A program made the position numbers and the translations under genes. A model generated the notes under the pieces. That model had not been told where the DNA came from and made no database searches. It saw only the letters and a list, made by a program, of their open reading frames with translations. From a virus (taxonomy: Duplodnaviria; Heunggongvirae; Uroviricota; Caudoviricetes): a stretch of DNA of 41,128 nucleotides. Location: the IMG/VR virus record IMGVR_UViG_2718217884_000003, positions 1 through 41,128 of that record; one strand, given 5' to 3'. This document shows, piece after piece, positions 38,952 through 39,955 of this stretch. Each line of letters starts with the position of its first letter. Position 1 is the first letter of the stretch.

Positions 38952-39374
38952 ATGTATTTATTTTCGCCAAGCACATTGGGTTTTTATCCCATCGAGATGA
39001 AAGAAGAATACCTTACCAGTGGTTCATTACCATCTGATGTTGTAGAGGTCTCTGATAGCGTCCGAAATGAATATAACTTTACGCCACCTGAAGGCAAACA
39101 GCTAAGTTCCAGCCAAAATATGCCAGTCTGGATTGATATTCCTCCGGCGACACGTGAAGAGTTAATTGCTGATGCCGAACAAGAACGCCAGAAACTACTG
39201 GCCCATGCTGACGCTGTCATGCTTGACTGGCGTACAGAATTAATGCTCGGTGAAATCAGCGACGCCAACAGGGCTAAACTGTCGGCGTGGTTGGCTTATA
39301 AAAATGAGGTTAAGTCGTGGGATATCAAAACCGATCCTGAGAATGTTAACTGGCCTGTTCCCCCGGTGGTGTAG
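38952..39374 (+). CDS. tfa: Tail fibre assembly protein (Tfa)
   Basis: 140-aa ORF with typical Tfa features (MYLFSP..., C-terminal ...SAWLAYKNEVKSWDIKTDPENVNWPVPP). Confidence 0.8.
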   Translation: MYLFSPSTLGFYPIEMKEEYLTSGSLPSDVVEVSDSVRNEYNFTPPEGKQLSSSQNMPVWIDIPPATREELIADAEQERQKLLAHADAVMLDWRTELMLGEISDANRAKLSAWLAYKNEVKSWDIKTDPENVNWPVPPVV

Positions 39375-39477
39375 GCCATTTAATATCGGGTGCGCTGGTT
39401 GTCTTTACCGCGTCCAGCGCATCCAGATAATCCAGCCACAGATTGTACTGCGCCAGTTCGTCACCTTTAAATCTCAT
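39346..39477 (-). pseudogene. Inverted C-terminal fragment of a second tail fibre assembly gene
   Basis: Minus-strand ...ELAQYNLWLDYLDALDAVKTTSAPDIKWPTPP resembles only the C-terminal third of Tfa proteins; no cognate fibre gene or invertase follows. Confidence 0.5.
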
Positions 39478-39955
39478 CTTTAGGATTTGCAGAAAGGGAG
39501 GTGTAAACAAATACCTGCGCATGAAAACGGAACTAGTCCAGATGTGATGTTTGTGGTGATCACATACATCATCAACGATGCTCGTTATGGTGAGTTTGAT
39601 GACTACCCGCTGAAGTGAAAATTGTGTTGTGTACCAAATTGCGTACCAAACTAAAATCACAAATCATGAAATCCTTGTTCATGGCGGTTCTCAGGGGTGT
39701 TGCGCGTAATCGTGAAACAAAAAGGTAGATTGTTGCTTACCGTCATTCATCATTAGGTTAAATCCGTTATTTCTGCTGTCTGCCAGAGTATCAAATATCA
39801 CCGTGCTAATCAGCTTTAGCGCCACAATTTGGCAGCGAGTGGCAACAGATCATGTCAGATAAAAATGAGAGGGTAGTCACATTTTCTTGCACTTTATTCC
39901 AGCCAGTTCATAAGTATTTCCGTAAAAAGAACAGCTATTTGAAACTCCTGAGGGT

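Follow-up and report, generated by a model that had tools for sequence, protein, structure and literature searches.

The minus-strand reading frame that overlaps the 3′ end of the tail-fibre assembly gene tfa, near the right end of the Escherichia coli prophage in the window (the whole 41,128-nt stretch analysed, IMG/VR record IMGVR_UViG_2718217884_000003), is best explained, at a probability of roughly 0.85, as the dead, locked residue of a Pin/Gin-type switch for host range, an invertible tail-fibre segment. The remnant, which is the 3′ end of a second, convergent tfa (tfa′), lies 237 bp inside the prophage right end and is joined bluntly to the 3′ end of another truncated gene, humD. Because no invertase and no second fibre end are present and the sole crossover site is degenerate, the switch appears to be dead and locked, and we infer that the remaining fibre and tfa cassette is fixed in one orientation with a single host-range specificity. 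The features of the region are collected in Table 1.

Table 1. Features of the right end of the prophage, with the Omnitron repeats for comparison. Positions are those of the window unless another sequence is named.
Feature	Position	Strand	Evidence or remark
Tail-fibre gene, 263-aa ORF	38158..38949	+	Pfam Gp53-like_C, E 3.1e-8
Degenerate left Pin/Gin-type crossover-site relic, TTCTCACATACCTTCAATTGGGAGAA	38594..38619		position-homologous to Omnitron and 611R5 repeats
tfa, intact tail-fibre assembly gene, 140 aa	38952..39374	+	Caudo_TAP, E 6.8e-28
tfa′ relic, last 40 codons and stop of convergent second tfa	39346..39468	−	Caudo_TAP C-terminal match
Blunt non-homologous tfa′/humD junction, …CACCTTT/AAATCTCAT…	39468..39469		pairwise alignments to 611R5 and strain 2013C-3250
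attP-derived right arm, phage-2851-type (sbcB-integrating)	39469..39704		identity to phages
humD (umuD-like, S24 peptidase) relic, last 44 codons and stop	39484..39618	+	NCBIfam NF051876 HumD
Tandem 12-mers, TTGTGTACCAAA/TTGCGTACCAAA	39627..39650		55-78 bp from att core
att core (attR copy), 13 bp, CGTAATCGTGAAA; prophage right boundary	39705..39717		attB/attP/attR/attL comparison
Orphaned host sbcB 5′ stub, codons 1-16, MMNDGKQQSTFLFHDY	39705..39753	−	homology to prophage-free strains
Host dacD, RefSeq start 39962	39962..41128	+	annotation transferred from L003 and other genomes
Omnitron inverted repeats, 27 nt, TTACCACAAACCTTGGTTTGGGAGAAG and complement	L014 2729-2755 and 4604-4630		1,848 bp apart

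A Truncated tfa Converges on the Intact tfa

The forward tfa aligns with the Caudo_TAP profile (PF02413) over essentially its full length (positions 5-130 of 131, 97.9 bits), and the Tfa of Salmonella phage SEN34 shares 58% identity with its product. The minus-strand ORF at 39346..39477 encodes 43 aa, and its match to the same profile is limited to positions 97-130 of 131 (E 2e-9, 38.1 bits against a cut-off of 22.1 bits), as expected of a pseudogene that is a partial member of the family. Over 41 aa it shares 73% identity with the C-terminus of the 146-aa tfa′ product of Escherichia phage vB_EcoM-611R5, here 611R5 (tblastn E 1.6e-17), and the C-termini of Mu U and U′ align with it as well. 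The first-pass annotation, made from the sequence without database searches, had described an intact tfa overlapped by a minus-strand Tfa C-terminus, and it identified both genes correctly, the matches being well above chance. The span that it gave the fragment, the whole of the 43-aa ORF, is right at the overlap with tfa but too long at the other end, where homology to true tfa′ stops at 39468 and the opening “MRF” (39469..39477) is fortuitous, being unrelated sequence from the humD side.

The geometry of the overlap is shared with intact gene pairs. The frames of tfa and tfa′ overlap by 29 bp (39346..39374), and two intact pairs of convergent tfa genes, in 611R5 (L004 6434..6462) and in Citrobacter phage Omnitron (L014 3550..3578), have the same 29-bp overlap. 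DNA homology to the full-length tfa′ genes of these two phages spans 39343..39468 and ends there, where both phages go on with further tfa′ codons. In other genomes, PGAP annotates the same piece as a tfa pseudogene without an N-terminus.

Upstream of tfa, the fibre gene combines an N-terminal part that is conserved with a C-terminal part that is variable and gp53-like; ATG at 38176 is a likelier start than the ORF opening at 38158. The N-terminal 90 aa are 69% identical to those of the 611R5 fibre. Two stretches of the inverted half of the 611R5 segment also match the window at the DNA level, its inverted fibre′ end (L004 7257..7117) at 38583..38724 and L004 6700..6640 at 39120..39180, and the fibre end and tfa of the window are similar to the forward cassette of Omnitron as well.

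Comparison with Intact Invertible Segments

Omnitron is the closest sequenced relative of the structural module, with 95% DNA identity over window positions 19372..38180, compared with ~72-85% for 611R5 and SEN34. Its invertible segment is complete. A 219-aa fibre with a gp53-like C-terminus and a 150-aa tfa are followed by a convergent 200-aa tfa′ and a 161-aa alternative fibre end (Collar domain), inverted repeats are present (Table 1), and the serine invertase of 182 aa contains Resolvase (E 3.7e-39) and HTH_7 domains. The 611R5 segment has the same layout and is nearly complete; its repeat is AAACCTTGGTTTGGGAGAAG, its fibre′ is shortened and its invertase is truncated. The invertase (L004 7302..7616) is 104 aa long against ~180 aa expected and the fibre′ 55 aa; judging from these lengths, 611R5 is itself partway through losing its own switch.

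The same organization extends to better-known systems. The repeat of the P segment of e14, the cryptic prophage of Escherichia coli K-12 that encodes Pin, has been used experimentally as 5′-TTGGTTTGGGAGAAGG (PMC12529663) and belongs to the same sequence family as the Omnitron and 611R5 repeats. All three segments have the crossover site within the fibre gene at …LGLGE… and a convergent tfa pair at the center, and Omnitron and 611R5 further share with the window the 29-bp overlap and homologous baseplate and fibre N-terminal genes. In contrast to all three, the window retains only 40 codons of the second tfa, lacks the second fibre end, the right crossover site and the invertase, and has a degenerate left site. 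The arrangement is also reminiscent of the Mu G (Gin) and P1 C (Cin) segments, in which a constant fibre part is followed by an invertible block of two fibre ends and two convergent tfa genes (U/U′) and then by the invertase; the Mu annotation gives the order S, U, U′, S′, gin. However, U and U′ of Mu are 28 bp apart and do not overlap, the identity between the Tfa proteins is 26-32%, and the copy in the window is non-functional.

The crossover-site relic of the window sits in the homologous place, in the fibre-gene context …ILTYLQLGEAAKRNV…, where Omnitron has its left repeat TTACCACAAACCTTGGTTTGGGAGAAG and 611R5 its own. The outer parts of the site survive, and the palindromic core has changed from AAACC-TT-GGTTT to ATACC-TT-CAATT. 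A caveat is that this stretch also encodes the conserved fibre motif (…LGLGE…), and constraint on the protein, not descent from a functional site, may be why it was retained.

A search of the 41-kb window with a 26-bp Gin/Hin-type crossover consensus and with the published e14 16-mer returned no intact site at up to three mismatches. A repeat scan of 37400..39960 found no flanking inverted-repeat pair, only short matches of chance size besides the tandem 12-mers. The best tblastn match in the window to the 611R5 invertase has an E-value of 1.4, no invertase ORF lies between 39478 and dacD, and tblastn with the 611R5 fibre′ found no second fibre end in the window, in agreement with the first-pass observation that neither an alternative fibre gene nor an invertase follows. 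The window contains one complete fibre-end/tfa cassette (38620..39374). Of a functional Gin/Pin/Cin-type segment, the invertase, the pair of inverted crossover sites and the pair of convergent fibre/tfa cassettes are missing. The overlap geometry, the position of the site and the flanking genes are those of Omnitron and 611R5, which supports descent from such a segment, and the proposal that the fragment is what is left of a Mu G/P1 C/e14 P-type segment is well supported by one complete and one nearly complete relative.

The prophage has a myovirus-type tail, and in its ancestor the constant part of the fibre gene would have been followed by a crossover site, a block consisting of fibre end A, tfa A, convergent tfa B and fibre end B, a second crossover site and a serine invertase. 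Flipping of the block would have exchanged the receptor-binding end of the fibre together with its chaperone.

The Junction between tfa′ and humD

The alignments of the window to 611R5 on one side and to strain 2013C-3250 on the other meet exactly at 39468/39469, with no microhomology at that point, and the junction consists of two 5′-truncated genes that abut. On its right, the match to the HumD family covers positions 85-128 of 129 in the profile (E 6.1e-10), and its score of 39.2 bits against a cut-off of 120 bits is that of a partial gene. The relic is 48% identical to P1 HumD and 60% identical to N15 gp26. In most sbcB-site phages, this stretch is part of the attP arm, and some of the genomes inspected annotate it as a humD pseudogene while the others leave it unannotated; PGAP labels it in relatives as a pseudogene (partial S24 peptidase). 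Position 39469 was also considered as a breakpoint shared with O157 Stx phages and was rejected, as the matches of those phages begin where window homology begins. In L007, the humD sequence continues further left than 39469.

The junction can be rationalized with a single event, a non-homologous break-and-join that would have brought codon ~105 of the reverse tfa (39468) up against the final 44 codons of humD (39469). This event, a deletion or an illegitimate joining of modules, would have taken out most of humD together with the invertase, the right crossover site, fibre end B and the remainder of tfa B. As no relative was found in which a full invertible segment, an intact humD and an sbcB-type attP are contiguous, the single-deletion step is one that we infer and do not reconstruct.

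The Right End of the Prophage Lies in sbcB

The ~480 bp between the fragment and dacD were at first described as non-coding, which does not hold: the interval comprises the humD relic, the attP arm, the att core and a 16-codon stub of sbcB. The accompanying prediction that attR would be found in 39480..39950 was correct. The 13-bp core was located by comparison of attB (EF7-18-58), attP (mEp234), attR (window and TB06053) and attL (TB06053), and the window contains it once. The 13-bp attP published for phages 2851 and Sf101 (PMC4159516) is identical to this core, and the annotated attP of mEp234 is also CGTAATCGTGAAA. Sequence to the left of the core is attP and sequence to the right is attB, as in a 2851-type sbcB core and arm, and the prophage end can be placed precisely at this core.

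Some 490 E. coli genomes have the 236-bp attP arm at 96-98% identity, as do phages 2851, 1717, mEp234 and Stx2a/2c phages; in Sf101 the identity is 91%. The window thus carries the same sbcB module as 2851, Sf101 and mEp234, with an identical core and an arm 91-98% identical; however, those phages are lambdoid or P22-like siphoviruses or podoviruses, whereas the window has a contractile-tail module of the SEN34/Omnitron type. The pair of tandem 12-mers within the arm is found again in the other attP arm, immediately upstream of int (L008 3410..3432; L012 2792..2814), and the 2851-type integrase probably uses these repeats as arm-type sites.

Prophage-free strains have sbcB and dacD side by side in divergent orientation, and their sequence matches the window from 39705 on; the interval 39705..40100 is 100% identical in several E. 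coli strains. Comparison of the dacD upstream region with such strains, which the first-pass annotation had proposed, thereby gave the boundary, although the target proved to be the 5′ end of sbcB and not the dacD upstream region as such. By this alignment, the prophage separates the sbcB stub from the rest of the gene. The dacD ORF is opened two codons before the RefSeq start by a TTG at 39956.

The left end of the window (1..192, minus strand) is inside an AlpA-family excisionase/regulator (xis) gene. As the window begins within xis, int and attL should lie outside it to the left, and the prophage would be ~1.6 kb longer than the window. The direct repeat is present in the close relative TB06053, which has int, an attL with the same 13 bp and a repaired sbcB. 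On its attL side (L012 1240..2664), SbcB is intact with 474 aa, and the first 15 residues (MTDTDKQPTFLFHDY) and the upstream region are phage-derived. Since the phage supplies the N-terminus of sbcB in TB06053, integration appears to repair the gene rather than destroy it.

For annotation, 39346..39468 and 39484..39618 are best entered as fragments of pseudogenes, and the entry for 39705..39753 should name a stub of sbcB.

The Junction Is Shared among Prophages with Different Tail Modules

Of 5,426 complete E. coli genomes, 9 have the identical tfa′–humD junction, aligned base for base. Carriers with a prophage at the sbcB site include KCJ3K291, CUPS SST 5/1 (Mu-like), and O145:H28 RM12581 and TB06053 (both SEN34-like), and the sbcB-site prophages with the junction have three baseplate modules (L001, L006 and L010/L013). 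A further carrier, F1267, has it in an argW/IntS prophage (L009). The partial-tfa pseudogenes that PGAP reports beside dacD or intS in these five genomes are the same relic and junction, at 90-95% identity. Because the same junction stands beside different tail and integrase modules, we regard it as an inherited fossil that, on these alignments, is not private to the prophage in the window. The first-pass suggestion that the alternative fibre module had been lost is accordingly sound as to the outcome, as the module is absent from the window and intact in Omnitron, but the loss is not one that this prophage underwent on its own.

The forward tfa of the carriers is of another kind. It is of a ~200-aa type in the four sbcB-site genomes and 132 aa long in F1267, compared with the 140-aa SEN34-like gene in the window, which is joined at ~39321-39343. 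From there rightward, the window is 94-96% identical to the junction genomes; leftward, they are unrelated or ~73% identical. The fibre/tfa cassette of the window is covered by none of the 5,426 complete genomes. Because the right-end module is 94-96% identical to that of prophages with the other, 200-aa forward tfa, the forward cassette (38620..~39340, SEN34/Omnitron “v1”-like) was probably swapped in later. Homologous recombination would have taken place in the conserved tfa 3′ overlap at one end of the cassette and, at the other end, in the conserved region of the fibre N-terminus and crossover site. Exchange within that overlap could alternatively have replaced the right-end module instead of the fibre-end/tfa cassette.

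The C-terminal type of the relic (…YNLWLDYLDAL…) is that of the forward tfa of Omnitron and not that of its reverse tfa. The window is therefore not derivable from Omnitron by simple deletion, and relating the two requires either one more cassette exchange or an ancestor with another pair of cassettes. In SEN34, ~25-45 bp of tfa′-like sequence follow the tfa stop and precede an O-acetyltransferase gene (L005 5574..5620); by its position and similarity, this SEN34 tail is a still shorter relic of the convergent tfa arrangement.

These distributions bear on the way in which the junction arose. Illegitimate recombination of two phages, one contributing a tail module that ended in an invertible segment and the other a humD-attP-int module, is a possible origin, if a less probable one. 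The region does behave as an exchanged module, in that the right-end module (39343..39717) is 94-96% identical to that of prophages whose tails are unrelated or ~73% identical, and it is in lambdoid and P22-like sbcB phages (mEp234, 2851 and L007) that humD typically stands beside this attP, not in Omnitron, SEN34 or 611R5. However, the argW/IntS prophage of F1267 has the same junction, so the humD sequence travels with the fibre module too. Deletion within one prophage and an illegitimate join of two phage modules would leave the same sequence.

Other Readings of the Fragment

It is also conceivable that the fragment never belonged to an invertible segment and is debris of homologous or illegitimate exchange between oppositely oriented tfa genes of separate prophages. 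Conservation of the Tfa C-terminus extends to many prophages, with partial matches in 2,369 genomes, and ectopic exchange is plausible in principle. We consider this origin improbable, however, as the fragment has the exact overlap geometry of the intact Omnitron and 611R5 segments, those phages share the baseplate and fibre genes of the window, and the fibre gene holds the homologous crossover relic.

As three baseplate types and two integrase types share the fossil, one might speculate that the tfa′–humD fossil and its 29-bp overlap are maintained as a portable linker, providing the homology by which prophages that are otherwise unrelated could swap whole fibre or tail modules, or that an ORF across the junction encodes a Tfa C-terminal decoy against superinfecting phages; we think it very unlikely that either is the case. 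The ORF in question, on the minus strand at 39346..39660, runs uninterrupted through the junction and would encode 104 aa. That it is a real gene, for example one whose product interferes as a decoy with fibre assembly by superinfecting phages, is highly improbable. The open frame across the junction and the preservation of the junction in nine genomes would fit such a gene, and tail-fibre remnants of cryptic prophages can defend against phage T2 (PMC12529663). However, the first 61 aa match no family and are read antisense to the humD relic and attP arm, which are conserved in phages without tfa′, the start codons are fortuitous, promoter-like matches are at chance level, shared descent explains the conservation of the junction, and PGAP calls the piece a pseudogene. 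In a promoter and terminator scan of 38800..40000, counts were at the level expected by chance and carry no information on expression of the relic. The 104-aa ORF is most likely spurious.

Continued inversion in trans through a Pin-family invertase of another host prophage, for which the activity of PinE, PinQ and PinR in trans on the e14 P segment (PMC12529663) offers a precedent, can be given almost no credence, as it needs two inverted sites, whereas the window has one, with four mismatches to the e14 repeat and a broken core, no partner within three mismatches in 41 kb, and no second fibre end to express.

Module Composition of the Prophage

The reading of the fragment as a remnant of an invertible segment places it among familiar phenomena. 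The sbcB att site, mosaicism bounded by tfa, invertible fibre segments and the decay of such segments in cryptic prophages have all been established before, and this relic is already a RefSeq pseudogene; the finding is correct, but the relic is an ordinary decay product. A dead host-range switch would leave the prophage with one fixed fibre specificity, and this has little import beyond correct annotation. As an example of mosaic exchange, one right-end module, made up of the tfa′ relic, the humD relic and the attP arm, is carried on at least three contractile-tail modules, and a myovirus of the SEN34/Omnitron type here has an integration module that is mainly familiar from Stx and serotype-converting lambdoid phages.

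The remainder of the prophage is composite as well. The head, tail and baseplate module is that shared with Omnitron, which comes from Citrobacter braakii in Germany, and the early region and integration module are common to E. coli prophages (TB06053, ETEC strains and E2348/69). The combination of an Omnitron-type structural module with E. coli-type early and integration modules points to a recent exchange of modules across genera. Among the 5,426 genomes, the best overall match is TB06053, which covers 79% of the first 25 kb at 95% identity.
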